From Nitrospiraceae bacterium (GTDB taxonomy: Bacteria > Nitrospirota > Thermodesulfovibrionia > UBA6902), in assembly GCA_003599025.1 (NCBI GenBank), contig QZIL01000093.1:24512-88511 (forward strand): a stretch of 64,000 bases of DNA, written 5' to 3'. Positions 36,941-51,817 of this stretch are shown piece after piece; within the stretch, counting starts at the first letter, position 1; each line of letters starts with the position of its first letter. Below the pieces are notes generated by a model, which saw only the letters and a list, made by a program, of their open reading frames with translations, was not told the DNA's origin and made no database searches. A program made the translations under genes and the position numbers.

Positions 36941-37333
36941 ATGTCCGATTTTGTAAAAGACGACATAGCACTTGCCAATGCTGTAGGCGCAGGCATTACT
37001 CATTCGTGTGAGTCGTTTGTGGAAGAATATACCGACCTTGTGCTGTCCAGGGTATGGAACCTTGCAAAGACTCACTGCGGACATCCTGCCAGAGAAAGAG
37101 TATGTTCTCTTGTCATACTTCAGAAACAGAGGAAAGGCTCTGATTATTACGTTGAAGACCAGTGTGATGACTGCCTGGACTCATACATATGGTTTTTTGA
37201 TTTCCTGAAAAGAAAGGTCAAGACATATAAAGGGACCAATAACTGCCGTCTCAAGACATATGTCTGGTCATTGGTCAACTCCAACTCTACATATATTGAA
37301 TGGTTAAGGTGGAAATATGGAAGGGCCTTTTAG
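36941..37333 (+). CDS. sigma-70 family region-2-like protein with Cys-rich insertion (possible split sigma factor, part 1)
   Basis: 130 aa; FVEEYTDLVLSRVW...TYVWSLVNSNSTYIEWLRWK resembles sigma70_r2; Cys cluster HSCES..HCGHP..C..DQCDDC. Confidence 0.45.
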   Translation: MSDFVKDDIALANAVGAGITHSCESFVEEYTDLVLSRVWNLAKTHCGHPARERVCSLVILQKQRKGSDYYVEDQCDDCLDSYIWFFDFLKRKVKTYKGTNNCRLKTYVWSLVNSNSTYIEWLRWKYGRAF

Positions 37334-37928
37334 CAAAACCGTCATAGAGAGGTTCCCGTCAGTAATTAAAGCCCTGAATGAAACCTGTCAGCAGGCTTTC
37401 ATATATCTGCGTTTAAGAAAAACAGAAACAGAAATATCAAGGCTGCTTAATCTGACTATTGATGATACTCGGGAAATGATAGAAACAGTCCGGAATGAAC
37501 TCATCAGGGCCGGTCTGCTCGACCTGATAGAAGATCCACGCTTTGTACCGATACACTCGGACGACCCTGACCTGCCTGACCTGCCGATTGAGGCAGGGGA
37601 ACTTGCTGCAGACAGCAGACTTATTGTCAGTGAATTCTTCTCACATCTCAAGGATGCAGTCACTAAGCTTCATGGTCATCAGACCAATCTGTTACGGCTG
37701 AGATACAAACACCAGCTTTCGGCCAAAGATATACTGGGGTTCTGCAAACATATTGGGACAAGCCTTGTCCCCGGCAGAGATGTTTCAGAACTGAAAGAAC
37801 AGGATGTCTTCTATGCACTCAATACAGCAGTAAAAGAGGTCCTTAAACAGCTGAAGTCCCGGTACAAGGGAGAAGAATCATTCAGTACGGAGAACCTCAA
37901 ATACATCTTTGAAGAGATTGGCTTGTGA
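37317..37928 (+). CDS. sigma-70 region-4-like protein with duplicated HTH (possible split sigma factor, part 2)
   Basis: 203 aa; +1 frame and 17-nt overlap with previous ORF; two region-4-like segments (QQAFIYLRLRKTETEISRLLNLTIDDTREM and NLLRLRYKHQLSAKDILGF). Confidence 0.45.
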   Translation: MEGPFSKTVIERFPSVIKALNETCQQAFIYLRLRKTETEISRLLNLTIDDTREMIETVRNELIRAGLLDLIEDPRFVPIHSDDPDLPDLPIEAGELAADSRLIVSEFFSHLKDAVTKLHGHQTNLLRLRYKHQLSAKDILGFCKHIGTSLVPGRDVSELKEQDVFYALNTAVKEVLKQLKSRYKGEESFSTENLKYIFEEIGL

Positions 37929-37981
37929 GAGGTTTAAATCTCCAGCATCCTGTCCGTCTAATTAAGAACGGGAGGTAATAT

Positions 37982-38875
37982 ATGGAACATATAAGTCTTG
38001 AAAAAATATTATCTTACACCGGGAAACGGCTCGATGACCGGGAGGCCCGTGAAGTTGAGGGGCATCTGGCAACATGTGAAAGGTGTCATGAGGTGTTTAT
38101 GGGCCTGAATTCAGCCGGAATTGCGGTGGGCAGGGCCTTTGATCCGGAACCTGCTACATCTTTATGCCCGGAAGACTGGGAGATGGCTGCACTGGTCCGG
38201 AAGGAACTTCCCTCCCAAACTGCAGAAAAGATAAAGACCCATTTGAAGGATTGCGGTTTCTGCGTTGACAGGGCTGCCGGATATTATAAGGCCTTGCATT
38301 TTGAAAGGCCTCCATTTATAACCCCTGAACAGTGGAAACATAAGGCCGTTCAGGGCATGGAAAACAGGCATGCAGTTATGGAGGAAGCAAAGGTTTCATT
38401 AATGCAACGCATTTTGTCTTCTTTCTCACAGATGACATCACCGCTGCCTGCTGTTGCCGGACTGGCTATAGCATTGCTCGCAATTGCCGTAATTACATGG
38501 ATCATCCTGCCGGGGAAAGGTACTCTGCAGGCCCTTGCATCAAATGAGACCCTGCTCATGAGGGATTCCGAAATCCCTTCATCGCTCGGTTTTTCCGGGA
38601 CTGATGATATAAGGGAAGTCAGCAAGATGGACATATCCCTTAACGGGAAGGAAATAATATTCATGTGGAAACCCATAGAAGGGGCGGTTGAATACAACTT
38701 CACGCTCATGGAAGGAAAACATCCTGTCTATGATGTGAAGACAGGCAACGGCGCACTGGTTGCTTTAAGCAATGAACTGATAGAGACACATACGACGTAT
38801 AACTGGCTTATTACCGGCAGGACAGCCGATAACAGATATTTTGAATATAAGGGCAACGTTGTACTGGTCAAGTAA
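37982..38875 (+). CDS. zf-HC2 anti-sigma factor, membrane-spanning
   Basis: RBS gggagg; HLATCERCHE and HLKDCGFCVD zinc-finger motifs; single TM (AVAGLAIALLAIAVITWIIL); periplasmic C-terminal domain. Confidence 0.6.
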   Translation: MEHISLEKILSYTGKRLDDREAREVEGHLATCERCHEVFMGLNSAGIAVGRAFDPEPATSLCPEDWEMAALVRKELPSQTAEKIKTHLKDCGFCVDRAAGYYKALHFERPPFITPEQWKHKAVQGMENRHAVMEEAKVSLMQRILSSFSQMTSPLPAVAGLAIALLAIAVITWIILPGKGTLQALASNETLLMRDSEIPSSLGFSGTDDIREVSKMDISLNGKEIIFMWKPIEGAVEYNFTLMEGKHPVYDVKTGNGALVALSNELIETHTTYNWLITGRTADNRYFEYKGNVVLVK

Positions 38876-38918
38876 CATGTCGATAGTCAGCAAGATAAGA
38901 AGTTGGGAAGTTAAGAAG

Positions 38919-40610
38919 ATGAGAAACAAAATTATTGTGGCCTTTGCTCGACAGCTAAACATCTTATGTTCTCATTTTCTATTTATTGCAATCTTCATGG
39001 CCTTTGCCTCTTCAGGGGCCTTTGCCGAAGACAGGGGAAGAAAGGAATTCTGGATAAACAAATACGGAATAACAAAAGAATACAGGTATACTGCGCGGGC
39101 ATACGCAGTGTTTGAGAGGGTCCTTGCTGCAGCCGACAGGCGGACCGGGATTGAACCTGCTTTATATATTGTGGATTATGATAAAACACCCTGGGCGCAG
39201 GCCCTTGCCGACGGTTCAATAATCCTGTCGAGAAAGGGCCTTGAATTTTGCTACAGCAGACAGGCCCCTGAAGACGGTGACTCGAGGCTGGCCTTTGTAA
39301 TAGGTCATGAGCTGGCCCACCAGTTTAACGGGGACTTCTGGCATTACAAATTCCTGAGAACAGCAGAAGACAGCGATGATAACATCCGGGCCTTTCAGGA
39401 CATAAAAGAACTCGCAAAGAGCACGGACATGCTTCTGGCCAAGGAACTGCAGGCAGACCAGTATGGCATTATTTTCGCCACAATGGCTGGTTACAACAGT
39501 GACAGGATCATTGCCGGTGACAGGAATTTTTTCCTTGAATGGGCTGAAAAAGAGACGCCTTCAGGCCGTCTGACCGAAAATCTCCGGTCCCTGTCCAGCA
39601 AAAGGGCAAAGGCTGTGTCAATGCGTCTCCAGGAAGTTTCGGACAGGATAGTCCTTTTTGATATGGGGGTCATCAGTTACCACCTTGGAAGGTTTGATGA
39701 GTCCCTGGTGCTTTTTAAAAGGTTTGCTTCCTTTTTCCCGGGCAGGGAGGTCTATACAAATGTCGGCACAATATACCTGCAGATGGCCTACAATAAATTC
39801 CGTATGGCAAGGAGTCCCGAGTCTTTTCCCTATGCACTCTCTTTCGGTATTGAAAAAAGGACGAGGGCCGAGTCTATTGATATTGCTTCAAAGGGCTTTA
39901 CAGAAACCGGGTACCGGGAATATAATGAGCTACTTCACATCGCGACCGATAATCTGAAAAAGGCGATTGAATATGATCCGTTTTACCACGAGGCAAAAAA
40001 CAATTTAGGATGCGCCTATATTATGGAAAACAGATATTATGACGCGGTATCTGTACTTGAGGATGCATTGAAGTCAGCACCTGATAGTGCTAAAATCCAG
40101 AATAATCTGGGGGTCGCCTATATTATGCTTGGACAATCAGTCGGCAGTAAGGGCCTTCTGGAAAAAGCGGAAAAAATGTTACTGGCTGCCCGGACCAGGG
40201 ACCGGAAGGCAGGCAGTAATTTCACTTCCTATCAGCGTATGTTTACGGATTTAAACAGCGGCCCTGAATCAGATAGTCCGATTGATGACCCGTTTGATGA
40301 TATTAATATTGAATTCAAGTCTTCTCCAAAATATAAACCTGAGATGAGTGTTTCTCCCGGGTACGGCCTTTCTTTGCTGGAAGTGATTTCTGACAGGGGG
40401 GATTCTGATCTGAAGGTTTTAAAGAAGGTCAGGGAAAATATATTCATCCTTGCCATGGGAGACAGAATTCGTCTGGTCTTATATAAAGAACCATCTCAAC
40501 TGATTACAAATATAAAAGGAGGTGAGCAGAGAAGCGTCTATGTGTCTGGCACGGGCAGGAACGGCGTTGTTATTTCAGTAAATACATCGCCTGATTATTT
40601 TGAATTTTAA
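38919..40610 (+). CDS. M48 family metallopeptidase with TPR repeats (BepA-like)
   Basis: signal peptide; HELAHQ zinc motif; C-terminal TPR-like repeats (NNLGCAYIMENRYYDA..., NNLGVAYIMLGQ). Confidence 0.7.
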   Translation: MRNKIIVAFARQLNILCSHFLFIAIFMAFASSGAFAEDRGRKEFWINKYGITKEYRYTARAYAVFERVLAAADRRTGIEPALYIVDYDKTPWAQALADGSIILSRKGLEFCYSRQAPEDGDSRLAFVIGHELAHQFNGDFWHYKFLRTAEDSDDNIRAFQDIKELAKSTDMLLAKELQADQYGIIFATMAGYNSDRIIAGDRNFFLEWAEKETPSGRLTENLRSLSSKRAKAVSMRLQEVSDRIVLFDMGVISYHLGRFDESLVLFKRFASFFPGREVYTNVGTIYLQMAYNKFRMARSPESFPYALSFGIEKRTRAESIDIASKGFTETGYREYNELLHIATDNLKKAIEYDPFYHEAKNNLGCAYIMENRYYDAVSVLEDALKSAPDSAKIQNNLGVAYIMLGQSVGSKGLLEKAEKMLLAARTRDRKAGSNFTSYQRMFTDLNSGPESDSPIDDPFDDINIEFKSSPKYKPEMSVSPGYGLSLLEVISDRGDSDLKVLKKVRENIFILAMGDRIRLVLYKEPSQLITNIKGGEQRSVYVSGTGRNGVVISVNTSPDYFEF

Positions 40611-40720
40611 TCGGGATAACTCTGTCCGTCCAATAATAATTACAATGATACTTTCCCTCACCCGGACCGGTTCTGAGAGCAGGAGGGCGATATTAAGGGA
40701 ACAAAAAAAGGAGGTCAGTA

Positions 40721-41311
40721 ATGAAAAAAGCTGTGAGGTTATGGTTTGTCTTATTATCAGCAATGGTATTGATTTCAGGATGTGCAGGCAGCAAGAAAGT
40801 GACCGATATGACACCGATACAGGAACTTAAGGCCCCTGAATGGGTAATGAAGGGAAGCGGTGCATTTGGCGGGGAAAAGGGCAAGGTGTTTTACGGGGTG
40901 GCGTCAGCCTCAAGGATGCAGAACATTTCCCTTATGCGTACTGCCGCAGACAACCGGGCGAGGAATGAAGTCGCAAAGGTCTTTCAGTTTTACACAGCGT
41001 CTCTGATGAAAGATTACGCTGCATCTACCGTTGCAGGAGACCCTGATGTCAGCTCTGAGGAACAGCATGTTGAGCAGGCCATAAAGACAGTCACGTCAAT
41101 GACTCTGTCCGGTGTTGAAGTTGTAGACCACTGGCAGAACCCTGCCACTCAGGAATTCTTCGCCCTTGCCAGGCTGGACCTCAATTCATTCAAGGACAAC
41201 TTTGACAAGATGCAGACCCTGGACAAGAAGGTAAGAGATTACATCAGAGAAAACGCGGACCGCATGCACGAGGAACTCGAAAAAGAAGAGGCAAAAAAGG
41301 CGGGCCAGTAA
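40721..41311 (+). CDS. LPP20/FlgP-like lipoprotein
   Basis: RBS aaggagg; lipobox LISGC; PEWVMKGSG...GVASA...AADNRARNEVAKV LPP20-type core. Confidence 0.55.
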   Translation: MKKAVRLWFVLLSAMVLISGCAGSKKVTDMTPIQELKAPEWVMKGSGAFGGEKGKVFYGVASASRMQNISLMRTAADNRARNEVAKVFQFYTASLMKDYAASTVAGDPDVSSEEQHVEQAIKTVTSMTLSGVEVVDHWQNPATQEFFALARLDLNSFKDNFDKMQTLDKKVRDYIRENADRMHEELEKEEAKKAGQ

Positions 41312-41411
41312 CAGGTAAATTGACGGGTTGCAGGGGGTGACATTTGCTCTGCAGCCCGGACATAAATTCGAAGTTGCTGAGAAGGCCATAAGTATGATTA
41401 CAACTTGGTTC

Positions 41412-41487
41412 GTCATTCCCGCAATACGTTGAGCGGGAATCCATTTAAGGAACTGGATACCTGATTAAGGACTTTGGGTATGACAGT
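41412..41487. repeat. family-A element
   Basis: GTCATTCCCGCaatacgttgaGCGGGAATCC...GGGTATGACAG; related to the 52375 copy. Confidence 0.65.
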
Positions 41488-41545
41488 CAATAACGGATCA
41501 TACATATAAGCTTATTGATAGGTAATTAGGATATGTGAGGTTGCC

Positions 41546-41995
41546 ATGAAAAAACTTTTTCTGACATTAACAATAATTCTGTCTATGACCGGCACGGTCT
41601 TTGCCGGCCCTGAAAGAGTAACGCTGATTACAGAGGATGAAGGCGCCATGAAAGATGCCCCCCCAGGACTTTATGACGTGGGGAGGGTTCTTAACACCGG
41701 TCCTGAGATAAAGATTATTTCACCCGAAATTGCAGATGAATATCATCCCCCTGTTGACATTAACATTGTTTTTGAACCGACAGATGATGCGAAAGTCGAC
41801 ATGTCAAAGTTCAAGGTTGAGTATATTAAAATAATGTCTCTTGATATTACAGACAGGTTTTTGCAATACACAACTAAAGATGGGATAAGGATCAAGAATG
41901 CCGACTTCCCGAGAGGCAAACACAAATTGAAGGTCACTATCGGGGATGATCATGGCGGGATAACTGAGGAGATATTTACAGTCAAGCTGCTGTAG
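41546..41995 (+). CDS. secreted hypothetical protein
   Basis: 149 aa with signal peptide (TGTVFA/GPE); no family recognised. Confidence 0.45.
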   Translation: MKKLFLTLTIILSMTGTVFAGPERVTLITEDEGAMKDAPPGLYDVGRVLNTGPEIKIISPEIADEYHPPVDINIVFEPTDDAKVDMSKFKVEYIKIMSLDITDRFLQYTTKDGIRIKNADFPRGKHKLKVTIGDDHGGITEEIFTVKLL

Positions 41996-42191
41996 TTTTT
42001 TAGTGTTCCGGCGGTCTGCGGCGATCAGACAGAAGACTGCTGAAACCAATTGTCATTATTAGAAACTGTCATGCCCGTTCCGTGACAAAGCGCGGAACGG
42101 GTCTCCGGTTATTTAAAGAGCTGCTGCCTGTTCCATAAGTTATGACGCTGAGGACAGGTTTTACCGGAATTATAGAAAAAGGACACGAAGC

Positions 42192-42839
42192 ATGTTCAGA
42201 TTACAGTCTCTTTTTTCATTGCTGGTTTTTCTGATTGCATTGGCAGACGGTGCCTCTGCAGGGTCTGCTTATGACAATGTTTACGCGGAATACCCGAAAG
42301 ATAAATACCTTGTGGGTATAGGCGAGACCGGCAGGACCGGGAATTTCCTGAATGACAAAAGGGTTGCTGAGGTGCTTGCGAGGCTCGAAATTGCCAAGCA
42401 GATAAAGGTCAGGCTCAAAGAAGAAACCGTAGATATAATGTGTGAAGGCGGGGCAGCAAGGCTGTTCAAAGACATGCGCGAATGCAGAAATGAATTTGTC
42501 ATGGTAGTTGAAGTCACTGTCGATGAGTTTCTTTCGGGCTCAAAGATAGTCAGTCATTGGGAACAGGATGGAATTGTATATGCAGTAGCTGTACTGCCGA
42601 AGGCAGAGGCTGTCAAAGAACTTGATGACAGGTCAAAGGAGTCGGCAGACAGGACCAGGGAAAATATTGAAAAGGCCAAAAACGGAGACGACGGGGCTGC
42701 TGGCGAAGCACAAAGGGAATATATGAAAGCAGTGACATATGACAGGGAAAAAGAGATGCTTGACGGAGTCAGAAGCCGTTCATCGGACATGTTTGATGAG
42801 CTTGAGAAGGAGTTGGTGAAGCTGGGGGGTAAGGAATGA
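42192..42839 (+). CDS. LPP20-like secreted protein
   Basis: 215 aa; signal peptide; YLVGIGETG...AEVLARLEIAKQIKVRL core similar to 40721 and 45301 products. Confidence 0.5.
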   Translation: MFRLQSLFSLLVFLIALADGASAGSAYDNVYAEYPKDKYLVGIGETGRTGNFLNDKRVAEVLARLEIAKQIKVRLKEETVDIMCEGGAARLFKDMRECRNEFVMVVEVTVDEFLSGSKIVSHWEQDGIVYAVAVLPKAEAVKELDDRSKESADRTRENIEKAKNGDDGAAGEAQREYMKAVTYDREKEMLDGVRSRSSDMFDELEKELVKLGGKE

Positions 42840-45160
42840 AAACCATAAAGATGGCAATGCTGCTTTTGGTCCTTATTATGCCGGCATATGTTTATTCTGC
42901 CGACAACAAAAAAGATCCCTCTCAGAATGGGGAGAAAACTGACTTCAGGATATTTAAGGGCCATTCAGAGGAAGTTCTCACGATTGCCTTAAGTCCGGAC
43001 GGCCGGATGCTGGCATCGGGTGGTGAAGATGAAATTGTTATTCTCTGGAATGTATCCACCGGAGAAAAGATAAGGACGCTCAAGGGACACTCGGGCCATG
43101 TTACGGCACTGTCCTTCAGTCCTGCCAACCAGACACTGGCTTCTGGAAGCAAGGACAAGAAGATAATTATATGGGATGCAGCTACCGGTGAGAAGATAAA
43201 GGACTTCAGTGACGACAGCTTCGATGCTGTCCTGTCAATTGCCTTCAGTCCTGACGGCAAAAGCCTTGCGGTCGGAAGTGAGGAGGAAACCATTACCTTA
43301 TGGGACCCGGAATCTGGAAAGACAATAAGAACTCTGAAGGGACATTCAGATGAAGTCTGTTCCCTGGCCTTCAGCCCAGACGGAAAATTGCTCGCCTCAG
43401 GCAGCGGTGATAAAACAATTATTATATGGAACCCTGTGACCAGCGAAATCCGCAACACCCTGAAAGGCCACAAAGATACGGTAAACTCTGTGGCGTTCAG
43501 TCCCGATGGCCGGGTGTTGGCCTCTGGTAGTGAGGACAGGACAATCGCCCTCTGGAATATTGCTTCCGGGGAAAAAATAAATATGCTGACTGACAATAAA
43601 GACTCTGTGCAGTCTGTTGCCTTCAGTCCTGATGGAATGCTTCTCGTCTCAGGCAATGAGGACGAAACCGTTACCATATGGGACGCGCAGACCGGAGGTA
43701 AACTAAAAATTCTTTCAGGGCATAAGGACATGATTACATCAGTTATATTCAGTCTGGATGGAAGCTCCCTTATATCAGCCGGTGAGGACAGAAATATAAT
43801 TGTCTGGAATACCGGCTACAGGACCTCATTCGCAGGTCCGCCGGCATCTGTCCCCTCACCCGCTGCTCCCCTGTCGGCAACAAAGGCCCCGGCAAATAAA
43901 ATCCCGGAAGTCAAGGTCCCGACTGTTAAAACCCCGGCATTTGCCCCTAATCTCCCTGTTCTGGCTGCGCCTGAACTGATGTACGATGTCAGGGTGGATG
44001 ATGCGAATGGCAACGGGATTTTCGAGGGAGGAGAAACTATCAAAGTGACAGTGAATATTGAAAACAGGGGCAAGGGTGCTGCCGAGGCTGTTGAGATATT
44101 GGTGTCCGGCAATAATTCACTGATATACTGCCTTGGAAACAGCAGGGTTGTGGGCGATGTTGGCCCCGGCAGTAAAAAAGATGTAATCCTGCAATGCACT
44201 CTGCCCACTCGCCTTAAGGCTGAAACAGCCCACATTTCTCTGGAACTGGCAGAGCAGAGGGGTTATTCACCCGCGGAAATAAAGTCCTTTACTGTTGCCA
44301 TGAAACCAGCTGATATAATAAAGACCGAGCACATAATTTCCCGGCATATAGATGTGGATGTGGTCCCTGCAAAAAACAGTAATTTCAGGAGGGACAATTC
44401 ATATGCTCTTGTAATAGGGATCAGCAATTATCGTGACAAGGAAATTCCTCCGGTCAAATACGCAAAATCAGACGCGGAGAAATTTGCAAAGTACCTCGAA
44501 AATATCGGAGGGGTCCCGGCAAAGAACATCAAGCTGGTCACTGACGAGATGGTGACCAAGGGTGACATTGAAGCATATATCGAAGACTGGCTGCCGAGAA
44601 GGATAAAAAAAGATTCCGAGGTCTTTGTTTATTATGCCGGACACGGTACTCCTGACCCCCGTACCGGTGAGGCATATATTGTACCATATGACGGAAATCC
44701 TGATTACAAATCAAAGCTCTATCCCCTTAAAAGGATGTATGCCTCTTTAAACAAGCTGCCGTCAGAACAGGTTGTTGTTATGCTGGATTCCTGTTTCTCC
44801 GGAGGAGGGGAGAGGGGTGTAATGAGTCAGGGGACCAGGCCTGTAAGTCTGTCTGTTGAGAACCCTATCCTGGCCGGAGGGAAGGTTTTTGTACTTGCTT
44901 CAGCTTCAGGGACGCAGATAAGTTCAGATTTTGATAAGGTAAAACACGGATTATTTACTTATTATCTTCTTAAAGGGATGAAGGGCGATGCGGACGAAGA
45001 CATGAACGATAAAATAGAGCTTCAGGAACTCTATAAGTATGTAAAGCATAACGTCTCTGAGACCGCATCATCTGAACTGAACAGAGAACAGATGCCTGTG
45101 CTTCTGCCTGATATGGAGCAGCACAGACCTGCAGCGATCGAAATAACAAGGGTGAAGTAG
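42836..45160 (+). CDS. secreted WD40-repeat / CARDB-like / caspase (peptidase C14) fusion protein
   Basis: 774 aa; signal peptide; seven WD40 blades (LASGS.D..I.IWD); CARDB-like middle; C-terminal caspase fold with His (YYAGHG) and Cys (LDSCFSGG) dyad. Confidence 0.8.
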   Translation: MKTIKMAMLLLVLIMPAYVYSADNKKDPSQNGEKTDFRIFKGHSEEVLTIALSPDGRMLASGGEDEIVILWNVSTGEKIRTLKGHSGHVTALSFSPANQTLASGSKDKKIIIWDAATGEKIKDFSDDSFDAVLSIAFSPDGKSLAVGSEEETITLWDPESGKTIRTLKGHSDEVCSLAFSPDGKLLASGSGDKTIIIWNPVTSEIRNTLKGHKDTVNSVAFSPDGRVLASGSEDRTIALWNIASGEKINMLTDNKDSVQSVAFSPDGMLLVSGNEDETVTIWDAQTGGKLKILSGHKDMITSVIFSLDGSSLISAGEDRNIIVWNTGYRTSFAGPPASVPSPAAPLSATKAPANKIPEVKVPTVKTPAFAPNLPVLAAPELMYDVRVDDANGNGIFEGGETIKVTVNIENRGKGAAEAVEILVSGNNSLIYCLGNSRVVGDVGPGSKKDVILQCTLPTRLKAETAHISLELAEQRGYSPAEIKSFTVAMKPADIIKTEHIISRHIDVDVVPAKNSNFRRDNSYALVIGISNYRDKEIPPVKYAKSDAEKFAKYLENIGGVPAKNIKLVTDEMVTKGDIEAYIEDWLPRRIKKDSEVFVYYAGHGTPDPRTGEAYIVPYDGNPDYKSKLYPLKRMYASLNKLPSEQVVVMLDSCFSGGGERGVMSQGTRPVSLSVENPILAGGKVFVLASASGTQISSDFDKVKHGLFTYYLLKGMKGDADEDMNDKIELQELYKYVKHNVSETASSELNREQMPVLLPDMEQHRPAAIEITRVK

Positions 45161-45194
45161 AGGTACTAAGACATAACTTAACAAAGCCTCATGC

Positions 45195-45253
45195 CCGTCA
45201 TTCCGGGCTTGACCCGGTCGGATCGACTCGCCCCGACCTTCGCGGGAATGACA
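45195..45253. repeat. family-A element variant
   Basis: cGTCATTCCGGG...GGTCGGatcgactcgcCCCGACC...CGCGGGAATGAC. Confidence 0.6.
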
Positions 45254-45300
45254 AACAAGGTGGCTTTCAATATGTAGTTGTTAGTAAGGGGTAGGTTCAC

Positions 45301-45837
45301 ATGAAGTTATTTCTGACATCGATTTTTCTTTTTTCATTCTTGACAGCCTGCCAGTCAGCCTATGTCAAACCATCAGGCCCGCCGCCTGCCTGGGTGGTCA
45401 GGACGCCTGATATGAAAGGCATGATCTGTGCTGTCGGGGCAAGCGGTCCCACGTATTTCAGGGATGACGCGCAGTTGAATGCTGCTGAAAACGCGAGGGC
45501 GGAGCTCGCAAGGACGATAAGCGTCAGCATTAAGAACATAATGGTCGAGATGACTTCTGACAAAGGCAGCTATATTGATGACGCGACCGTAAGTGAGGTC
45601 TCGTCTTGGGCCACCTCGGCAGTTGTGGAAAATTCCAGCATAATGGAGTACTGGTATGACGCGGACGGTCAGGTGTCGAAAAAGGATTTCACCTATGCCC
45701 TTGGCTGCATGCCGCGCAAGTTTGACAGGAAGTCTCTTGAGGCGCACATGTCTGATTCACATTCTGCCGGCCAGGGGAGTCATAATGACATCAGCCGCGC
45801 GGCAGATGAGATACTCAGGCAGCTTGAGGGGGAGTGA
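45301..45837 (+). CDS. LPP20/FlgP-like lipoprotein
   Basis: 178 aa; lipobox LTAC; PPAWVVRTPD...AVGASG...AAENARAELARTISVSI. Confidence 0.55.
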   Translation: MKLFLTSIFLFSFLTACQSAYVKPSGPPPAWVVRTPDMKGMICAVGASGPTYFRDDAQLNAAENARAELARTISVSIKNIMVEMTSDKGSYIDDATVSEVSSWATSAVVENSSIMEYWYDADGQVSKKDFTYALGCMPRKFDRKSLEAHMSDSHSAGQGSHNDISRAADEILRQLEGE

Positions 45838-45925
45838 ATGCTTATGTTGGTTCAATCATTCTGATTGAACTATAAAGCTAAATTATATGGAGCATCTCCG
45901 AAAAAGTGCTAATAAGCAGATGGTT

Positions 45926-45998
45926 GTCATTCCCGCGCAGGCGGGAATCCAGAGCCTTTGAAAGGACCAGATTCCGGTTTAAGGACTGCCGGAATGAC
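45926..45998. repeat. family-A element
   Basis: GTCATTCCCGCgcagGCGGGAATCC...gccGGAATGACag; overlaps the 5' leader of the FGE-like gene. Confidence 0.7.
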
Positions 45999-46007
45999 AG
46001 GAAGGGC

Positions 46008-47054
46008 ATGAAAAATATAATCCTGGCCATCATTATCTCTATGGTATTATCCTCTTATGCATTCGCTGCCGAGGTCAAGAACGTTGTCTCCTCCCAGTCA
46101 GGCAACCGCGTGCTCTTTGAATATGACCTGACCGGAGAAGAGAAAGAGGCTGACGTTAATATCACGATCACCGTCAACGGCACGGCCTATAGCGCAGAAA
46201 AGCTCTACCTTGAGGGTGATTATGGGAAGGTCAGCTTAGGCAAGGGTAGGAAGATATACTGGAACGTGCTCCAGGACTTTCCGAGGGGACTTAATACGAC
46301 GTTTGAGTGGGAGATAACTGAGGGAGGCAAAGACTTCAAAGATCCGTTGACAGGAATGGAGTTTGTCTTTGTTAAAGGTGGGTGTTTTCAGATGGGGGAT
46401 ACGTTTGGCGATGGAGATGCGGATGCGAAGCCGGTACATGAGGTGTGCGTGGATGATTTTTATCTGGGGAAATATGAGGTGACTCAGAGGCAATGGAGAG
46501 AGGTTATGGGGAACAATCCTTCGTATTTCAAGAACTGTGGCGATGACTGCCCTGTGGAACAGGTGAGTTGGAACGATGTGCAGGAGTTCATTAATAAGCT
46601 GAATGAAAAGATAACCCCCCATAGTCCCCCCTTAGATAAGGGGGGAAGAAAAGGGGGGTACAGACTTCCTACAGAGGCGGAGTGGGAGTATGCCGTACGG
46701 AGCTGTGGGAAGAAGGAGGAGTACTCAGGTAGTGACAGTATTGACAGTGTGGCATGGTATGACAGTAATTCGGGAAGAAAGACACATCCTGTAGGGCAGA
46801 GAAGTCCTAATGGTCTCGGCATTTATGACATGAGCGGCAATGTATGGGAATGGGTACAGGACTGGTACGGGGAGAAATATTACGGTGAAAGTCCCAAGTA
46901 CAATCCTAATGGACCGAACAGTGGAACCGCTCGCGTGCTGCGCGGCGGGTCTTGGAGCAATATTACGAGGTATGCTCTCACATCCAATCGCGTCAGGTAC
47001 CATCCCGACTACAGATTCAACAACGTCGGGTACCGCCTTCTTTGGACTAAGTAG
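46008..47054 (+). CDS. secreted FGE-sulfatase (SUMF1/EgtB/PvdO) fold protein, apparently lacking the catalytic Cys pair
   Basis: signal peptide; N-terminal beta domain; FGE core (YRLPTEAEWEYA...NGLGIYDMSGNVWEW...RVLRGGSW...VGYRL). Confidence 0.8.
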   Translation: MKNIILAIIISMVLSSYAFAAEVKNVVSSQSGNRVLFEYDLTGEEKEADVNITITVNGTAYSAEKLYLEGDYGKVSLGKGRKIYWNVLQDFPRGLNTTFEWEITEGGKDFKDPLTGMEFVFVKGGCFQMGDTFGDGDADAKPVHEVCVDDFYLGKYEVTQRQWREVMGNNPSYFKNCGDDCPVEQVSWNDVQEFINKLNEKITPHSPPLDKGGRKGGYRLPTEAEWEYAVRSCGKKEEYSGSDSIDSVAWYDSNSGRKTHPVGQRSPNGLGIYDMSGNVWEWVQDWYGEKYYGESPKYNPNGPNSGTARVLRGGSWSNITRYALTSNRVRYHPDYRFNNVGYRLLWTK

Positions 47055-47276
47055 TTTATTAGTCTTTAGACTTTTTGCTTTTTTACACTTTGTTTTTTTG
47101 GGGTACAGGGGCATTGCCCCTGTAGAAAATAAATATGGAGGTAGGATAGGAGCACACTCCTCAGTCCCTTCTCGGAATCGAGTCAATACGACTTTATAGA
47201 GAAGAGATACAGTGAAACAACTTGAAATATGAAAAGTACATAAGTAATCTAATAAAAAATCATTAAATCGTTTATT

Positions 47277-47618
47277 ATGAAGAAGACAATAAAACCGCCT
47301 CTAAGAAAGTCTGTGCTGAACACCATATTAAAACGTCTGGTGGATAACCTTGACGTTGTCAAGATAATCCTATTTGGCTCCTATGCTTCAGGCAAGCCGA
47401 CAAAGGACAGCGACCTGGACCTTCTCATCATTCTGAATACCAAAGAAAAAGGGCTGAAACGCTATGCGATGGTCAGTGAGCTGCTTGAGCCGAGAAAAAT
47501 ACCGATGGACATCATTGTAAAGACGCCTGAAGAGATGAAGAGCAGGGCCAGGATGTTTGACCCATTTTTGAGAACGGTTCAGAAAACAGGGAAGATCCTC
47601 TATGAAAAACCAGCCTGA
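47277..47618 (+). CDS. nucleotidyltransferase (MNT-type antitoxin)
   Basis: 113 aa; LFGSYASGKPTKDSDLDLLIIL Pol-beta NTase motif. Confidence 0.8.
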   Translation: MKKTIKPPLRKSVLNTILKRLVDNLDVVKIILFGSYASGKPTKDSDLDLLIILNTKEKGLKRYAMVSELLEPRKIPMDIIVKTPEEMKSRARMFDPFLRTVQKTGKILYEKPA

Positions 47619-47988
47619 TGTCCTTGAATGGATATTGAAAGCAGAACAGGATTATGAGACTGCTGAAACAATGGCCCGCAGAAGGAAGAATCCTGTGCCT
47701 GATGTGGTCGGTTTCCACAGCCAGCAATGCATTGAAAAATATTTAAAGGCCTATCTCGTTTTGAAAAAGCTCGATTTTCACAAGACGCACGACCTGCTTG
47801 AACTCCTTGAAATAGCTCTCGCAAAAGATCCGCTCCTCGAAGGATACAGGGCCGACCTGCGACTGTTAAATCCATTCTCTGTTCAATTCCGTTATCCCGG
47901 TGAAAGCGCGACACTGGAAGAGTCAAAAACGGCATTGAAGGCCATGCGCAAGGTGCGGATGTTTATTAGAGAAAAGTTTAATCTGTAA
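47602..47988 (+). CDS. HEPN domain protein (toxin partner of MNT)
   Basis: 128 aa; overlaps MNT gene by 17 nt; HEPN fold with conserved ...FRYPG.. region. Confidence 0.75.
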   Translation: MKNQPDVLEWILKAEQDYETAETMARRRKNPVPDVVGFHSQQCIEKYLKAYLVLKKLDFHKTHDLLELLEIALAKDPLLEGYRADLRLLNPFSVQFRYPGESATLEESKTALKAMRKVRMFIREKFNL

Positions 47989-48005
47989 AGTCACAGGGAT
48001 GGGGC

Positions 48006-49397
48006 ATGTTTAAAAAATTATCTGCCGTTACATTAGCAATTATCCTTTCAGCCTCAATGGCTTTTGCCGAGAAAGGCTCTCTTAAGATCGGCATCCTTCC
48101 CGCGCCCCCAAACATTTCAGCGAGCGTGAAATTTACCGAGCCGTCAGGCAACAACATCCTCGACGCGGAGGAGACAGGCACGCTGACCATCATTATAAGC
48201 AATTCCGGGAAGGGGGACGCCTTTGACGTCACGGCTGAGCTAAAGGCGGACAAAAAGACCAGAGGCTTTACCTATAACAATACCGTATCTTTTGGCACGA
48301 TACCTGCCGGTAAGCAGTCATCGATGGACATTGAACTAAGGGCCGGGGAAGACATCCCCACCGATAATATAGCTTTCTCGATAACCGTAAAGGAGGCAAA
48401 CGGCTTTGACGCGGACCCGCTTAAGGTGGCGTTCAGGACAAAGTCCTTTGAGCCTCCAAGTCTCATTATCGCTGACATCGGCATAGACGACCAGAACGGC
48501 AATTCATCTGTCGAGCAGATGGAGATTGTGGTTGAGGGCGTAGACGCGCCGAAGGGAGAGATAAGGGTAGCAAAAGGTCTCAGCGTGGACATTGAACAGG
48601 GCCTGCCGGTCACAAAGACACAGAACAGGGACGCCTTTGCGGTGGTCATGGGCAACTCGGAGTACAAATACGCGAAGAACGTCGACTTTGCGGTAAATGA
48701 CGCTCAGATGGTAAAACGCTATTTGACCGAAGTCCTTGGCTTCAGGGAGGGCAATATCTTCATACTTGCCAACGCGACAAAAGGGGACCTTGAGCTCTAC
48801 TTCGGGACCAAAGACAATTTCAAAGGCAAACTCTTTAACCAGGTAAAGCCGGGCAGGTCGGACATTTTTATCTATTATTCAGGGCATGGCGCCCCGGGCC
48901 TGAAAGACAGGAAAGGCTACATCGTCCCTGTCGAGGCAGACCCGCAATATATCGAACTGAGCGGCTACCCGCTGGATGTCTTCTACAGCAACCTCTCGAA
49001 GCTTCCTGCAAAGTCCGTGACGGTAGTGACGGACGCGTGCTTTTCAGGCGCAGACATTTATGACAGCATCTCACCGATAGTCCTTGAGATAGACAACCCG
49101 GTCATAAACCTGAATAACGGAATCGTGCTTTCAAGTTCGACAGGAACTCAGGTCTCGACATGGTACAATGAGAAGAAGCACGGGATGTTCACGTACTTCT
49201 TTTTGAAAGCAATACACGACAGGAACGCGGATTATGATGGGAACAGGGAGCTTACATTTGATGAAATTTACCGGTATATTTCGGACAGGTCCGACGGCGT
49301 TCCCTATTACGCAAGAAGCATACATAATGTGGAGCAGACGCCTGTCATTCAGGGAAAGTATCAGGGCAGGGTGTTGGTGACGTATGAGGAGAAATGA
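48006..49397 (+). CDS. secreted caspase family protein (peptidase C14) with N-terminal CARDB-like domains
   Basis: 463 aa; signal peptide; His (IYYSGHG) and Cys (VTDACFSG) catalytic dyad. Confidence 0.8.
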   Translation: MFKKLSAVTLAIILSASMAFAEKGSLKIGILPAPPNISASVKFTEPSGNNILDAEETGTLTIIISNSGKGDAFDVTAELKADKKTRGFTYNNTVSFGTIPAGKQSSMDIELRAGEDIPTDNIAFSITVKEANGFDADPLKVAFRTKSFEPPSLIIADIGIDDQNGNSSVEQMEIVVEGVDAPKGEIRVAKGLSVDIEQGLPVTKTQNRDAFAVVMGNSEYKYAKNVDFAVNDAQMVKRYLTEVLGFREGNIFILANATKGDLELYFGTKDNFKGKLFNQVKPGRSDIFIYYSGHGAPGLKDRKGYIVPVEADPQYIELSGYPLDVFYSNLSKLPAKSVTVVTDACFSGADIYDSISPIVLEIDNPVINLNNGIVLSSSTGTQVSTWYNEKKHGMFTYFFLKAIHDRNADYDGNRELTFDEIYRYISDRSDGVPYYARSIHNVEQTPVIQGKYQGRVLVTYEEK

Positions 49398-49496
49398 AAA
49401 TAAACACACCCCTCTATCCCTTCTTTTTAGAGGGGATGAATTGGAATGGCCCAAAAAATGAAAACAGTGTCCGTCAAAATATTTAAACACATAAAT

Positions 49497-49528
49497 ACCT
49501 GGATTCCGGATCAAGTCCGGAATGACGC
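49497..49528. repeat. family-A element, partial (3' module)
   Basis: ggattccggatcaagtccggaatgacgcc. Confidence 0.5.
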
Positions 49529-49592
49529 CATTAAACTGAAGCATTGATTGTTTATTATTAGAATAATGAATTAACGATATTATGGAGGGCAT

Positions 49593-50930
49593 ATGAAAAA
49601 AATATTTCTGGTATCGGCCATATTATTCATTTTTACCTCGTCAGCCTTTGCCGAGTTCCCTGCTGTAAAGGTATACGAGAAGACGGCAAAGAATGTTGTG
49701 CTGATAATCGCCAAAAGCGAAGACACCAGCAGTATGATAGGCGCGGGATCCATTATTTCAGGCACTGGACTGGTCTCTACAAACGCACATGTAGTTGTTG
49801 ACAAGTCTACCTCAAAACCATATTCAAAGATCAGGGTATATCTTAAACCTGATAAGGTGACCGGGAAGTTCAGGAAGGACCTTGTCCATAGCCATAAGGC
49901 TGAAATAGTAGCATATGACATCGACCTGGACCTGGCCATTCTGAAAGCTGAAGAAATCCCGTCCGGGACAGGGACCATAGAACTTGCAAACCCGGATGAG
50001 ATAAAAGTCGGCGAAGAGGCAGTGGCTATCGGCCACCCTGAGCAGGGAGGCCTCTGGACCCTCACATACGGAAGAATAAGCGGAGAAATAGAAGACCAGA
50101 ACAGCATAAAGGGTAAAGACGTATTTCAGACAGACGCGAGCGTCAACCGCGGCAATTCCGGCGGCCCTCTCCTCGATAAAAGAGGGTACATGATAGGCAT
50201 AAACTCAAACATGGCGCGTCTGGGGGCAGGTGATATTCCGATAACAGGTGTTAATTTTGCTGTCAAGGCCTCGGTGCTGAAAAGCTGGCTTCAGAAGCAG
50301 GGGATTACACTTGCTTATGGAAAAGCGGACCTGTACAAAGAAGAACGGGTGAAGCCCGCAGGAGCAGAACTTGAGATGGAGAAAAAATCTGAACAACCGG
50401 AAGTACCAAGGGCAGAACCCTCTGTTGAGAAAGCAGAGCCTGTTATAGAGAAACCGGAACCGTCTGTTGAAAAGACTGAGCCGTCGGTAGAAAAAGCAGA
50501 ACCAGTCGCTGAGAAAGCGGAACCATCTGTTGAAAAGACTGAGCCGTCGGTAGAAAAAGCAGAACCAGTCGCTGAGAAAGCGGAACCATCTGTTGAAAAG
50601 ACTGAGCCATCAGTAGAAAAAGCCGAACCTGTCGTTGAGAAGGCGGAACCATCTGTTGAAAAGGCGGAAGCCCCTGTCGAGAAGGCGAAACCTGTAATAA
50701 GGCAGGCTGAACCACCTGTCAGGAAATCACATACTGTTGTTGAAAAAGCGGAACCCCGTGCTGAACAGAAAGACATGAAAGACGGGGACGGAGAGAAAAC
50801 GCCGGAGACTGAACAGACTGAAAAATACCAGCCTCATCGTAAGGCCTACAGCTATGACTCATTGTTGAAGGCAGCTGAAGAAGATCTTGAAGACATGATG
50901 GAGGAGATGAGGGGAAAGATCAGAAGGTGA
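49593..50930 (+). CDS. secreted trypsin-like serine protease with C-terminal EK/P-rich tandem-repeat linker
   Basis: signal peptide; TNAHVV (His), DLAIL (Asp), GNSGGPL (Ser) triad; C-terminal repeats (EKAEPSVEKTEPSVEKAEPVA)n. Confidence 0.7.
   Translation: MKKIFLVSAILFIFTSSAFAEFPAVKVYEKTAKNVVLIIAKSEDTSSMIGAGSIISGTGLVSTNAHVVVDKSTSKPYSKIRVYLKPDKVTGKFRKDLVHSHKAEIVAYDIDLDLAILKAEEIPSGTGTIELANPDEIKVGEEAVAIGHPEQGGLWTLTYGRISGEIEDQNSIKGKDVFQTDASVNRGNSGGPLLDKRGYMIGINSNMARLGAGDIPITGVNFAVKASVLKSWLQKQGITLAYGKADLYKEERVKPAGAELEMEKKSEQPEVPRAEPSVEKAEPVIEKPEPSVEKTEPSVEKAEPVAEKAEPSVEKTEPSVEKAEPVAEKAEPSVEKTEPSVEKAEPVVEKAEPSVEKAEAPVEKAKPVIRQAEPPVRKSHTVVEKAEPRAEQKDMKDGDGEKTPETEQTEKYQPHRKAYSYDSLLKAAEEDLEDMMEEMRGKIRR
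50448..50700 (+). repeat. in-frame 63-bp coding tandem repeat (about 3.5 units)
   Basis: the unit gagaaagcggaaccatctgttgaaaagactgagccgtcggtagaaaaagcagaaccagtcgct is repeated nearly perfectly inside the protease gene. Confidence 0.75.
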
Positions 50931-51817
50931 TGAAGATAGAGAGCATAAAAATAATCAAATGCCTGCTTTCATTTTTTATTGTTACATATGCTGTGGCGGT
51001 ATATTCTTCAAAGGCGCTTAGAGCTGAGGACACGGCCCCGCTTGTTCCGGACAATGATAACCTTAAGATAGTAGAAGCTGTTGGAGAAATTCTGCTTGGT
51101 GATGACACCACCCCTGCACAGGGCAGGGCAATGGCCCGTAATAACGCGAGGAGAAATGCTCTTGAACAGGCAGTAGGGGTAAAGGTCCACAGCTCGACAG
51201 TTTTATACAATAGCAGCCTTATAAGCGACCTTGTTGTAACAGCCACCAAGGGGCTGATAGTTGAAGAACAAATAATTGATGACGGGCCGGTCATAAAAGG
51301 AGACCAGATATATCATATTTGCAAGCTCAGGGCATATGTAAAGCCTGTCAATATAGAAAAGAGAGGGAACTTCAGGGTCCTTAAAGCTGAAGTCCTGAGG
51401 GCCGGGTCGGACAGAGGTCTTAAAAACCCTGTATTTCAGGACAATGATGAAATACAGGTGATAGTAAGTGTTAATGAAGCTTCACATATAAATATTTTCA
51501 GCGTGAGCCAGGACGGAATGGTTTCGCAGCTTTATCCGAATAAATTTTTTAAATCAGAGCAGCTGGCTGCCGACAAGACCATGATATTCCCGGATGATGC
51601 CCAGCGGGCACTTGGACTGAGACTCCGTGTAAGGACCCCGAAAAAACTGAGCTCGGCACTTGAATCGGTGCTCGTGGTAGCTTCAAAGGAAATGATCGAG
51701 TTGCATCCTGCAGACGGGATGAATGAGCTTATGCTTACGGACGTTCTGAAGAGTCTTTCTGGAATCGATCCGTCATTATGGGCTGATATGACAGTCGGGT
51801 ATGAGGTGAGGAAGTAG
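50927..51817 (+). CDS. LPP20-like plus DUF4384 domain protein
   Basis: 296 aa; signal peptide; N-terminal LPP20-like core (AVGEIL..AQGRAMARNNARRNALEQAVGVKV); C-terminal DUF4384-like (EIQVIVSVNEASHINIFSVSQDGMVSQLYPNKFF). Confidence 0.55.
   Translation: MMKIESIKIIKCLLSFFIVTYAVAVYSSKALRAEDTAPLVPDNDNLKIVEAVGEILLGDDTTPAQGRAMARNNARRNALEQAVGVKVHSSTVLYNSSLISDLVVTATKGLIVEEQIIDDGPVIKGDQIYHICKLRAYVKPVNIEKRGNFRVLKAEVLRAGSDRGLKNPVFQDNDEIQVIVSVNEASHINIFSVSQDGMVSQLYPNKFFKSEQLAADKTMIFPDDAQRALGLRLRVRTPKKLSSALESVLVVASKEMIELHPADGMNELMLTDVLKSLSGIDPSLWADMTVGYEVRK

Follow-up and report, generated by a model that had tools for sequence, protein, structure and literature searches.

A conserved cassette of exported caspase-fold proteases, SHS2-DUF4384 proteins and a lectin-fold partner in a Nitrospiraceae genome

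A recurrent exported cassette

A 64,000-nucleotide stretch of contig QZIL01000093.1 (hereafter the window) comes from the metagenome-assembled genome (MAG) of a Nitrospiraceae bacterium and contains an island of genes for two exported caspase-fold proteins (caspase 1 and caspase 2) and their neighbors. The 463-aa caspase of the island is identical to the NCBI entry "hypothetical protein C4581_11230". Together with a block directly upstream, the island comprises 15 open reading frames (ORFs) between 36941 and 51817, all on the + strand (Table 1). We find that it is a conserved, exported multi-gene cassette and not a chance neighborhood. Three parts of this cassette recur: the caspase, a protein that joins an SHS2-like domain to DUF4384 (SHS2-DUF4384), and a β module of ~95 aa, named FGE_N here, that carries a lectin-fold or a PDZ domain. 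As the lectin-fold partner is a target of diversity-generating retroelements (DGRs) in related loci, we tentatively read the cassette as a receptor-guided proteolytic system of the cell envelope.

The same families already stood together around individual homologues, and the conservation of the cassette was then followed in both directions. In a forward survey, 80 loci, one per species and from at least 10 phyla, were fetched via the caspase, and their six-frame ORFs were labeled with profiles grown from the window proteins. A DUF4384 protein was present in 42 of the 80 loci, with all 45 of the corresponding ORFs on the caspase strand at a median distance of 142 nt, and its gene, directly beside that of the caspase in 25 loci, was the commonest caspase neighbor. 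FGE_N was found in 22 of these loci and LPP20-like genes in 9. Conversely, 80 metagenome loci were fetched via the DUF4384 protein in a reverse survey; in the 19 that were flanked on either side by 2.5 kb or more, a caspase was present 16 times and directly adjacent 12 times. The caspase gene habitually stands next to the SHS2-DUF4384 gene on the same strand, often with overlapping stop and start codons. Many carriers are Bacteroidota, Ignavibacteriota or Cloacimonadota.

Among the Nitrospirae, the agreement extends to the gene order. The island also encodes three proteins of the LPP20/FlgP family (LPP_A, LPP_B and LPP_C), an exported protein of 149 aa (p149) and a trypsin-like protease, and the order LPP_A-p149-LPP_B-WD40 caspase-LPP_C-trypsin-DUF4384 recurs in two Nitrospirae loci, L167 and L168; compared with the DUF4384 protein of the window, identity is 66% in one case and 57% in the other. 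L167 shares, in addition, the upstream genes for an anti-sigma-like protein and an M48-TPR protease as well as the flanking GFO and SLT genes, and the metagenome contigs L154, L106, L090 and L094 keep most of the order. The original prediction, made from the letters of the window, had proposed a multi-gene system and had set chance juxtaposition against it; the comparison of gene neighborhoods found the synteny elsewhere and bears out the system.

Two exported caspases of family C14

By sequence, both caspases fall into the C14 family with the caspase-hemoglobinase fold and are predicted proteases. Caspase 1 (774 aa) reaches 77.9 bits for Peptidase_C14 when its C-terminal half is scanned alone, and caspase 2 (463 aa) reaches 51.9 bits (cut-off 21.4 for both). 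The catalytic dyads, H603/C653 and H294/C345, respectively, are intact, and Pfam recognizes seven WD40 stretches in caspase 1, so that the two intact His/Cys dyads and the fusion to seven WD40 blades announced by the original prediction are both confirmed. The His and Cys positions are invariant in an alignment of 17 sequences, and the caspase profile places the dyad on that of the plant metacaspases AtMC4 and AtMC9. Orthologues of caspase 1 with the same architecture were found in L001, L167 and L168.

A search of the PDB with the single sequence of caspase 2 gave no match, and the family profile was required. The structure prediction that the first reading of the window had advised agrees with the assignment: the AlphaFold2 (AF2) model of caspase 2 (pLDDT 80.6, above 90 in the caspase domain) matched in Foldseek the MALT1 paracaspase (E 3e-11, TMt 0.68) and the metacaspases Yca1, AtMC9 and AtMC4. 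For CARDB itself, the window proteins give only sub-threshold scores (E 0.006 and 0.035), although most homologues carry PF07705, and the model of caspase 2 shows an Ig-like sandwich at the CARDB-like region. Most of the family measures ~560 aa and has two CARDB-like domains, and caspase 2 falls short of this length by ~100 aa. Its model is disordered at residues 151–192, where a second Ig domain would be expected, which suggests a deletion. Elsewhere in the caspase family, fusions to cytochrome c, S41/PDZ and BamD-like YfiO domains occur.

A receptor-like lectin-fold protein with a retroelement history

The island encodes a receptor-like protein in which a signal peptide and FGE_N precede a domain with the fold of the formylglycine-generating enzyme (FGE). 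Its ORF opens at 45906, but the gene itself begins with the ATG at 46008, and the apparent 5′ extension is spurious because it is made up of a repeat that resembles repetitive extragenic palindromic (REP) elements. The original prediction had called the protein an FGE-sulfatase, and this holds for the fold (Table 1) but not for an enzyme. Indeed, when it is aligned to 2Q17, a gap and the residues SNITRY stand in place of the catalytic cysteine pair (LCHDSYC in Streptomyces coelicolor FGE), and since both of these catalytic, copper-binding cysteines are absent, the protein is not an FGE enzyme. The top PDB match of the domain is TvpA (2Y3C, E 2e-41), the DGR variable protein of Treponema denticola, and we take the domain as a predicted binding domain with a TvpA-like C-type-lectin fold. 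It also matches PorK/GldK (E 2e-15 in the PDB; 91.6 bits in NCBIfam against a cut-off of 350).

Several related loci contain a short second "FGE" ORF 2 kb downstream of the orthologue, which is a DGR template repeat (TR). In L051, L053, L063 and L070, the 3′ end of the orthologue and this downstream copy differ at 20–25 positions, and genes for bAvd and RVT_1 lie between target and template copy. A blind scan of all loci for pairs of variable region (VR) and TR added L057, where the target is a protein joining FGE_N to Fib_succ_major, and L097/L098. The VR/TR mismatches fall 90–100% at TR adenines in L051, L053, L057, L063, L070 and L097. The counterpart of the window protein is, by these signatures, an active DGR target in six related loci.

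No TR (blind scan included), reverse transcriptase (RT) or Avd was found in the window for the FGE gene. The window receptor is 69% identical to the DGR target of L051. Along the stretch aligned to the L051 TR, it departs from the template at 9 of 13 Asn (AAC) positions but at only 5 of the remaining 24 (p = 0.006), and every codon at the 13 Asn positions ends in a pyrimidine. These asparagine-focused differences are the footprint of a former variable region, and the window receptor is a fossil copy that no longer diversifies, with its VR at the C-terminus. In L051 and L070, the avd-RT-TR unit lies between the receptor gene and the caspase gene, a slot that is filled in the window by a pair of MNT and HEPN genes.

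FGE_N as a link between binding domains and proteases

FGE_N is encoded at 46068-46346, after the signal peptide of the receptor, with which it makes up the first ~115 residues. In the loci, it is fused to FGE-type lectin folds, Fib_succ_major, PDZ, C-termini resembling outer-membrane barrels or a C-terminal transmembrane helix, and the FGE_N protein is often encoded immediately 5′ of the caspase. An exhaustive HMMER profile search collected 1273 cluster representatives, superseding a word-indexed homology search with the 93-aa FGE_N that had given 4 matches. The 98 representatives that were scanned had as partners mostly FGE-sulfatase (31), Lcl_C (19) and PDZ (8), and more rarely Peptidase_C14 (4), S41 (3) and WD40 (3). 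FGE_N thus links binding domains and proteases, at times on one polypeptide. Compared with the CARDB-like domain of the caspases in hhalign, it scored 86%, partly owing to the signal peptides, and the two may be related Ig-like sandwiches.

FGE_N was also observed as 7–22 tandem copies in giant proteins of 1,400–5,700 aa (P0245, P0246, P0269 and P0294). Besides heading the receptor of the cassette, it therefore serves as a general Ig-like unit in the construction of large proteins, presumably of the cell surface.

SHS2-type proteins and the trypsin-like protease

The original prediction counted four LPP20-like lipoproteins in the island. Three are LPP20 proteins at the level of Pfam (gathering cut-off 25.9 bits), LPP_C with a borderline score of its own but a match of 99.9% to the LPP_A family in hhalign, and the fourth is probably the N-domain of the DUF4384 protein. 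Lipoproteins, by a heuristic motif search, are only LPP_A and LPP_C (ISGC in the protein starting at 40721 and LTAC in that starting at 45301); neither LPP_B nor the DUF4384 protein has a lipobox. A search of the PDB with the single sequence of LPP_A gave no match. An SHS2-like fold is common to FlgP, Lpp20 and FlgT, and the rings that FlgP builds in the periplasm lie beneath the outer membrane (PMC12222027). The position of LPP_A is kept in L002, L167, L168 and L154. Protein p149, which always lies between LPP_A and LPP_B, has orthologues in L002/L003, L106, L154, L167 and L168; it matched no family in the Pfam and NCBIfam scans, and nothing significant was obtained in hhalign against FGE_N, CARDB or DUF4384.

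The AF2 model of the DUF4384 protein (pLDDT 87.5) consists of an N-terminal helix, a β-α-α-β-β domain that is SHS2-like, and a β-sandwich. With modest scores, the sandwich matches macroglobulin (MG) domains and glycan- or lipid-binding modules, among them the O-antigen-binding domain of Wzt and RhoGDI. Over the N-domain, the family profile matches Campylobacter jejuni FlgP (9HMF chain C, identity inferred from length and description; E 8.7e-4), and hhalign supports the likeness at 65%; Pfam LPP20 was not detected there (E ≤ 1). Longer DUF4384 relatives carry an additional bona fide LPP20 domain at the front. The N-domain is thus probably FlgP/LPP20-like, but not a lipoprotein. Across lineages, the homologues listed for the DUF4384 protein are 45–77% identical.

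Two protease genes of the window overlap an SHS2 gene each: LPP_B and caspase 1 share 4 nt, where the former stops and the latter starts, and the trypsin gene and SHS2-DUF4384 share 1 nt in the same way. In most other genomes, it is the caspase that is the coupled partner of the SHS2-DUF4384 gene. The trypsin-like protease with a repeat linker was correctly recognized at the outset (Table 1); Pfam finds no PDZ domain in it, and its C-terminus is the 7-aa repeat linker. Its orthologue follows LPP_C in L090, L094, L106, L154, L167 and L168. The orthologues of L167 and L168 are 70–80 aa shorter, and the number of repeats therefore probably varies.

A gene of the CsgG/FlgO family stands beside LPP20-like genes in a related caspase/DUF4384/LPP20 cluster (L001, 14018-15457). 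CsgG/FlgO is a family of outer-membrane channel or ring lipoproteins, so this neighbor hints at an outer-membrane assembly; the window has no such gene.

Layout of the island and its surroundings

Export signals were judged by a heuristic that combines the search for an N-terminal hydrophobic region with a motif search. A signal-like N-terminus was found by it on every island product except MNT and HEPN, in agreement with the original prediction of an almost entirely exported set; the Pfam searches likewise confirmed nearly every domain assignment made there, DUF4384 included. No NTPase domain was found by Pfam in any product from 36941 to 51817, and the STAND, MoxR-vWA or GTPase core that characterizes NTPase-centered caspase/CLec conflict systems (Kaur et al. 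2020) is therefore lacking.

Table 1 Features of the island, its upstream block and the repeats, with the basis of each assignment.
Feature	Position in the window	Strand	Basis
p130, 130 aa, possibly sigma-70 region-2-like (accessory)	36941..37333	+	Sub-threshold matches only
p203, 203 aa, possibly sigma-70 region 3/4-like	37317..37928	+	Sub-threshold NCBIfam matches only
zf-HC2 (ZAS-type) anti-sigma-like membrane protein	37982..38875	+	Pfam zf-HC2 35.1 bits
Exported M48-like (HELAH) metalloprotease with TPR repeats	38919..40610	+	TPR above cut-off; signal peptide
LPP_A, LPP20/FlgP-family (SHS2) lipoprotein	40721..41311	+	Pfam LPP20 31.2 bits; lipobox ISGC
p149, exported 149-aa protein	41546..41995	+	Signal peptide; no family match
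LPP_B, exported LPP20-family protein without lipobox	42192..42839	+	Pfam LPP20 31.5 bits; type-I signal peptide
Caspase 1: signal peptide, seven WD40 blades, CARDB-like Ig domain, C14 domain	42836..45160	+	Pfam
LPP_C, LPP20-family lipoprotein	45301..45837	+	Pfam LPP20 26.0 against 25.9 bits (borderline); lipobox LTAC
REP-like hairpin repeat GTCATTCCCGC...GCCGGAATGAC	45926-45998		Repeat count and sequence inspection
Exported receptor-like protein: signal peptide, FGE_N, TvpA-like FGE/C-type-lectin fold	46008..47054	+	Pfam FGE-sulfatase 165.7 bits
MNT	47277-47618	+	Pfam NTP_transf_2 57 bits
HEPN	47602-47988	+	Pfam HEPN 85 bits
Caspase 2: signal peptide, one CARDB-like Ig domain, disordered linker, C14 domain	48006..49397	+	Pfam
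Exported trypsin-like S1 protease	49593..50930	+	Trypsin_2 93 bits; H66/D113/S189
21-nt (7-aa) tandem repeat in the trypsin gene	50408-50764	+	~17 copies, EPSVEKA-like; acidic, Pro-rich, EP-rich linker
SHS2-DUF4384: signal/anchor helix, FlgP/LPP20-like N-domain, DUF4384 β-sandwich	50930..51817	+	Pfam DUF4384 46.6 bits
Other REP-like or miniature inverted-repeat transposable element (MITE)-like copies (GTCATTCCCGC ... GCGGGAATGAC), intergenic	19543-19609, 36788, 41412, 45242, 54728-54800, 59465		

The island had been described as placed directly downstream of a module of sigma factor, anti-sigma factor and BepA-like protease, and the parts of this module fared differently. The zf-HC2 assignment is solid: the protein has two HxxxCxxC motifs, a transmembrane helix at about residue 151 and a periplasmic C-terminal domain of ~125 aa, and orthologues occupy this place in L002/L003 and L167 as well. 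Peptidase_M48 falls just short of its cut-off (19.3 versus 20.3 bits), although the HELAH motif is present, and the BepA identity has to be given up, as the NCBIfam score is 13.6 where 570 is needed; the likeness to BepA is one of architecture only. Orthologues of this M48-TPR protein occur in L002/L003, L167 and L154.

The sigma factor itself remains sub-threshold. p130 has no Pfam match, and its top NCBIfam match, far below the cut-off, is a type III-E CRISPR-associated RpoE-like sigma factor (E 0.0045); p203, which overlaps p130 by 17 nt in another frame, has sub-threshold NCBIfam matches to FliA/WhiG and to region 4 of extracytoplasmic function (ECF) sigma factors (E 0.0016–0.05). Neither has a homologue in any fetched locus. 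The two look like the halves of a very divergent sigma-70-family protein, which would be either a split sigma factor or an assembly frameshift. By far the most cassettes lack the sigma/anti-sigma/M48-TPR block. It was found only in the window, in L002/L003, in L167 and, in part, in L154, and is specific to this lineage and not a feature of the system as first supposed. The roles "envelope-stress-triggered" and "cell death" are speculation.

As originally noted, the island is interrupted by the MNT/HEPN pair, a cytoplasmic toxin-antitoxin-type pair that is probably an unrelated insertion. The block FGE-MNT-HEPN-caspase 2 is absent from L167 and L168, and 46008-49397 of the window is therefore a later insertion that separates LPP_C from the trypsin gene. 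The older island had nine genes, and the receptor arrived together with caspase 2.

Toxin-antitoxin genes of the nucleotidyltransferase type were seen inside the cassette in three unrelated genomes: the MNT/HEPN pair of the window (47277-47988), an MNT/HepT pair in a Syntrophorhabdaceae MAG (L004, 11800-12656) and an AbiEii/DUF6036-like gene in a Nitrospirae MAG (L168, 9451-9954). These repeated insertions could be a coincidence in genomes rich in such pairs.

Upstream, the island is flanked by bamA (30212-32518), skp, lpxD, fabZ, lpxA and lpxI (ending at 36560), and downstream by GFO/DegT genes and an SLT-LysM transglycosylase gene. The intergenic gaps of the island measure 110–234 nt and contain REP-like repeats. 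The interspersed repeats reported for the island are real, as the hairpin GTCATTCCCGC has 10 matches in the window versus 0.89 expected, but they are spread over the whole window and are not particular to the island. A scan of the window with Rfam found no RNA family, and a promoter and terminator scan of the window showed no excess over shuffles and no usable operon boundaries. A non-coding-looking element of ~180 nt is present in two copies, one between bamA and skp (32607-32788) and one right after the last gene of the island (51861-52042), with a mean column identity of 83% across an aligned stretch of 231 nt. Both copies hold a short ORF with a similar peptide (YAFMN.A.V.QVKLF), and neither matches Rfam.

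Three assignments suggested by single domains were rejected. Readings of the island as a magnetosome (MamA-like TPR), type IX secretion system (T9SS; PorK/GldK-like) or flagellar (FlgP) locus have only generic domain likeness behind them; the scores stay far below the equivalog cut-offs, and companion genes are absent.

Possible function and alternative explanations

The signal peptides, the fusions within the caspase family and the position of FGE_N before barrel-like domains point to components that are periplasmic and near the outer membrane. We tentatively propose, with somewhat less than even confidence, that the cassette carries out receptor-guided extracytoplasmic proteolysis, most likely in envelope-level surveillance or defense. 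The lectin-fold protein would be the receptor. Its ligand would be variable and captured in the periplasm or on the inward side of the outer membrane, and the Ig-like FGE_N, CARDB and WD40 modules would couple the receptor to the caspases. Because two of the LPP20/FlgP-like proteins are predicted lipoproteins and each protease gene is translationally coupled to an SHS2 gene, these proteins may serve as tethers or scaffolds for the proteases at the outer membrane and possibly restrain them. The bound target would then be destroyed or processed by proteolysis, which in this Nitrospirae lineage may also send a signal inward through the zf-HC2 anti-sigma-like protein and the M48-TPR protease. The targeting of the receptor by DGRs argues for a variable, probably foreign ligand, hence for a role in surveillance of the envelope or its defense against incoming foreign proteins, such as those of phages, toxins or predators. 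A bolder version of this proposal, which we hold to be rather unlikely, is a programmable immune-like system outside the cytoplasm. In such a system, the DGR-diversified receptor (frozen in the window) would capture foreign proteins in the periplasm, the caspases, recruited via shared FGE_N/CARDB adaptors on a FlgP/LPP20-like platform at the outer membrane, would cleave them, and the anti-sigma protein would serve as an alarm in the Nitrospirae.

Several observations weigh against surveillance or defense. In ~44% of the caspase loci, none of the partners lies within 10 kb, and DGRs were found in only ~6 of 166 loci. The sigma factor is weakly recognizable in the window, and no recognizable one stands beside the anti-sigma gene in L002 or L167. 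The homology between FGE_N and the CARDB-like domain is only suggestive. A PADLOC scan returned generic "caspase" and trypsin-domain matches only and no known defense system. Finally, the island is surrounded by the envelope-biogenesis cluster bamA-skp-lpxD-fabZ-lpxA-lpxI, and the DUF4384 protein is strongly conserved, unlike typical fast-evolving components of immunity, which would fit a housekeeping role.

Such a role, in quality control or remodeling of the envelope, is in our view rather unlikely. The caspases, the trypsin-like protease and the M48-TPR protein would then be periplasmic proteostasis enzymes comparable to DegP, Prc-NlpI and BepA, with the LPP20-like lipoproteins as outer-membrane adaptors. 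The M48-TPR architecture, the DegP-like S1 protease, the fusions of the family to S41/PDZ and BamD-like YfiO domains and the high conservation of the DUF4384 protein agree with it, as does the placement of the island between the bamA-lpxI cluster and the SLT/LysM genes, both in the window and in L167. However, the BepA equivalog score is not approached, the distribution is patchy with a variable copy number, the gene content differs even among close relatives (the window versus L167 and L168), and toxin-antitoxin genes have been inserted into the island. Six DGR-targeted lectin-fold partners are hard to square with a fixed self substrate. Alternatively, the cassette might be a proteolytic signaling switch in which a caspase or the trypsin would cut either the DUF4384 protein or the periplasmic part of the zf-HC2 protein and free a sigma factor, much as in DegS-RseA-sigmaE or in the Craspase set Csx29-Csx30-RpoE. 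The zf-HC2 gene lies directly 5′ in the window, L002/L003 and L167, the top match of p130 is a type III-E-associated RpoE-like sigma factor, and DUF4384 forms the C-terminal domain of some Csx30 proteins (10.1101/2022.08.17.504292). Yet only 4 of ~168 loci (the window, L002, L003 and L167) have the anti-sigma gene, in L002 and L167 it has no recognizable sigma gene beside it, the matches of p130 and p203 stay sub-threshold, neither of these has a homologue in any locus, and most cassettes lack any regulator; we regard a switch as clearly unlikely. Both housekeeping proteostasis and a sigma switch could be compatible with receptor-guided proteolysis.

Adhesion or feeding at the cell surface, with a variable lectin that binds prey, hosts or particles and secreted proteases that degrade the bound protein for nutrition or invasion, seems to us quite improbable. 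TvpA and other bacterial DGR targets are indeed surface lipoproteins or adhesins (PMC4891356), FGE_N forms tandem arrays in giant adhesin-like proteins, and Bacteroidota, Ignavibacteriota and Cloacimonadota are frequent among the carriers. Nevertheless, the window proteins show no transport signal past Sec or Lol, and the N-terminal position of FGE_N before barrel-like domains and the lipoproteins, which have no surface-export signature, point to the periplasm. In addition, C14 enzymes are usually processing proteases of narrow specificity. A chance juxtaposition of unrelated exported genes might be read from the repeat-bearing intergenic gaps and from the unrelated MNT/HEPN pair within the island, but the comparative data refute it: the synteny appears in both search directions and at least 10 phyla, three Nitrospirae genomes have an identical multi-gene order with a DUF4384 identity of 57–66%, and direct fusions join FGE_N to caspase among the scanned representatives, and caspase to FGE and to DUF4384 in the literature (PMC3501461, PMC7475262).

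With this analysis, a single odd island becomes a defined gene cassette known from many phyla, and the DGR hypermutation of its lectin-fold partner provides an independent functional clue. What caspase homologues do in bacteria is a long-standing question, and hardly any work has addressed the exported ones. DUF4384 and the previously unnamed ~95-aa module (~1,270 representatives) here receive their first annotation by structure and context. If the immune-like version were true, exported bacterial caspases and DUF4384 would for the first time have a function assigned to them, and the cassette would be a periplasmic counterpart of cytoplasmic sensor-caspase conflict systems.

Comparison with known systems

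Fusions of metacaspases to FGE or WD40 domains and of orthocaspases to DUF4384 are known, as are N-terminal helices that possibly act as signal peptides (PMC3501461, PMC7475262). The same literature agrees with the original prediction that the pairings of caspase with FGE and with DUF4384 are recurrent and functionally uncharacterized. The window proteins share with these prokaryotic metacaspases and orthocaspases (MEROPS C14) the C14 fold, the His/Cys dyad and the WD40, FGE-sulfatase and DUF4384 partners, and some members are likewise predicted to be extracellular. Here, however, the partners are separate exported proteins encoded in a conserved operon-like cassette, which adds LPP20/FlgP-like lipoproteins, a trypsin-like protease and FGE_N. 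No such gene-neighborhood pattern is reported in the two metacaspase surveys (PMC3501461, PMC7475262), and our literature search, which included papers mentioning DUF4384, found no description of the cassette, in line with the claim that it had not been described before.

DGR variable proteins that combine an orthocaspase with a lectin domain (CLec) have been described in cyanobacteria (PMC7517822), and DGR-diversified lectin "antigen sensors" stand beside caspase and trypsin effectors in NTPase-centered, mostly cytoplasmic conflict systems (PMC7159879, PMC10907252). Like TvpA and the cyanobacterial variable proteins, the window receptor has a C-type-lectin/FGE fold; it matches TvpA best and lacks the FGE active site. 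Its orthologues in L051, L053, L063, L070 and L097 have VR/TR pairs, bAvd and RT, unlike the window copy, which has no TR, RT or Avd. The pairing of a lectin-fold sensor with a caspase-type protease is likewise shared. The described conflict systems are mostly cytoplasmic and built on STAND or MoxR-vWA NTPases, whereas the cassette is exported and NTPase-free, with sensor and protease on separate polypeptides.

The likeness to the FlgP/LPP20/FlgT proteins (the basal disk of C. jejuni and Lpp20 of Helicobacter pylori) lies in three LPP20 products, the probably FlgP-like N-domain, two predicted lipoboxes and the CsgG/FlgO-like gene of L001, but there are no flagellar genes nearby and the partners here are proteases, not a motor. 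A GldK-like match of the FGE fold recalls the FGE-fold ring lipoprotein PorK/GldK of the T9SS; the score is far below the cut-off, and no T9SS genes are present. Like the DegS-RseA, Prc-NlpI and BepA systems, the window encodes exported S1 and M48/TPR proteases beside an anti-sigma-like membrane protein; its S1 protease differs in lacking PDZ, and its M48 protein is far from the BepA cut-off.

DUF4384 is the C-terminal domain of some Csx30 proteins, which are substrates of the caspase-like Csx29 (bioRxiv 10.1101/2022.08.17.504292), and this provides a precedent for DUF4384 in the company of a caspase-like protease and a sigma factor. The type III-E Craspase system (Csx29, Csx30, Csx31 and RpoE) shares with the window a caspase-fold protease with a DUF4384 partner and a putative regulator of sigma/anti-sigma type, and the top, weak match of p130 is to the III-E-associated sigma factor. 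The likeness is thematic only, as the window has no Cas7-11, CRISPR array or CHAT domain and its C14 proteases are predicted to be periplasmic. Our literature search found no description of three features: a multi-gene form that is exported, free of NTPases and equipped with SHS2/LPP20 proteins; FGE_N; and the pair of caspase and SHS2-DUF4384 genes as a unit that recurs across many phyla.

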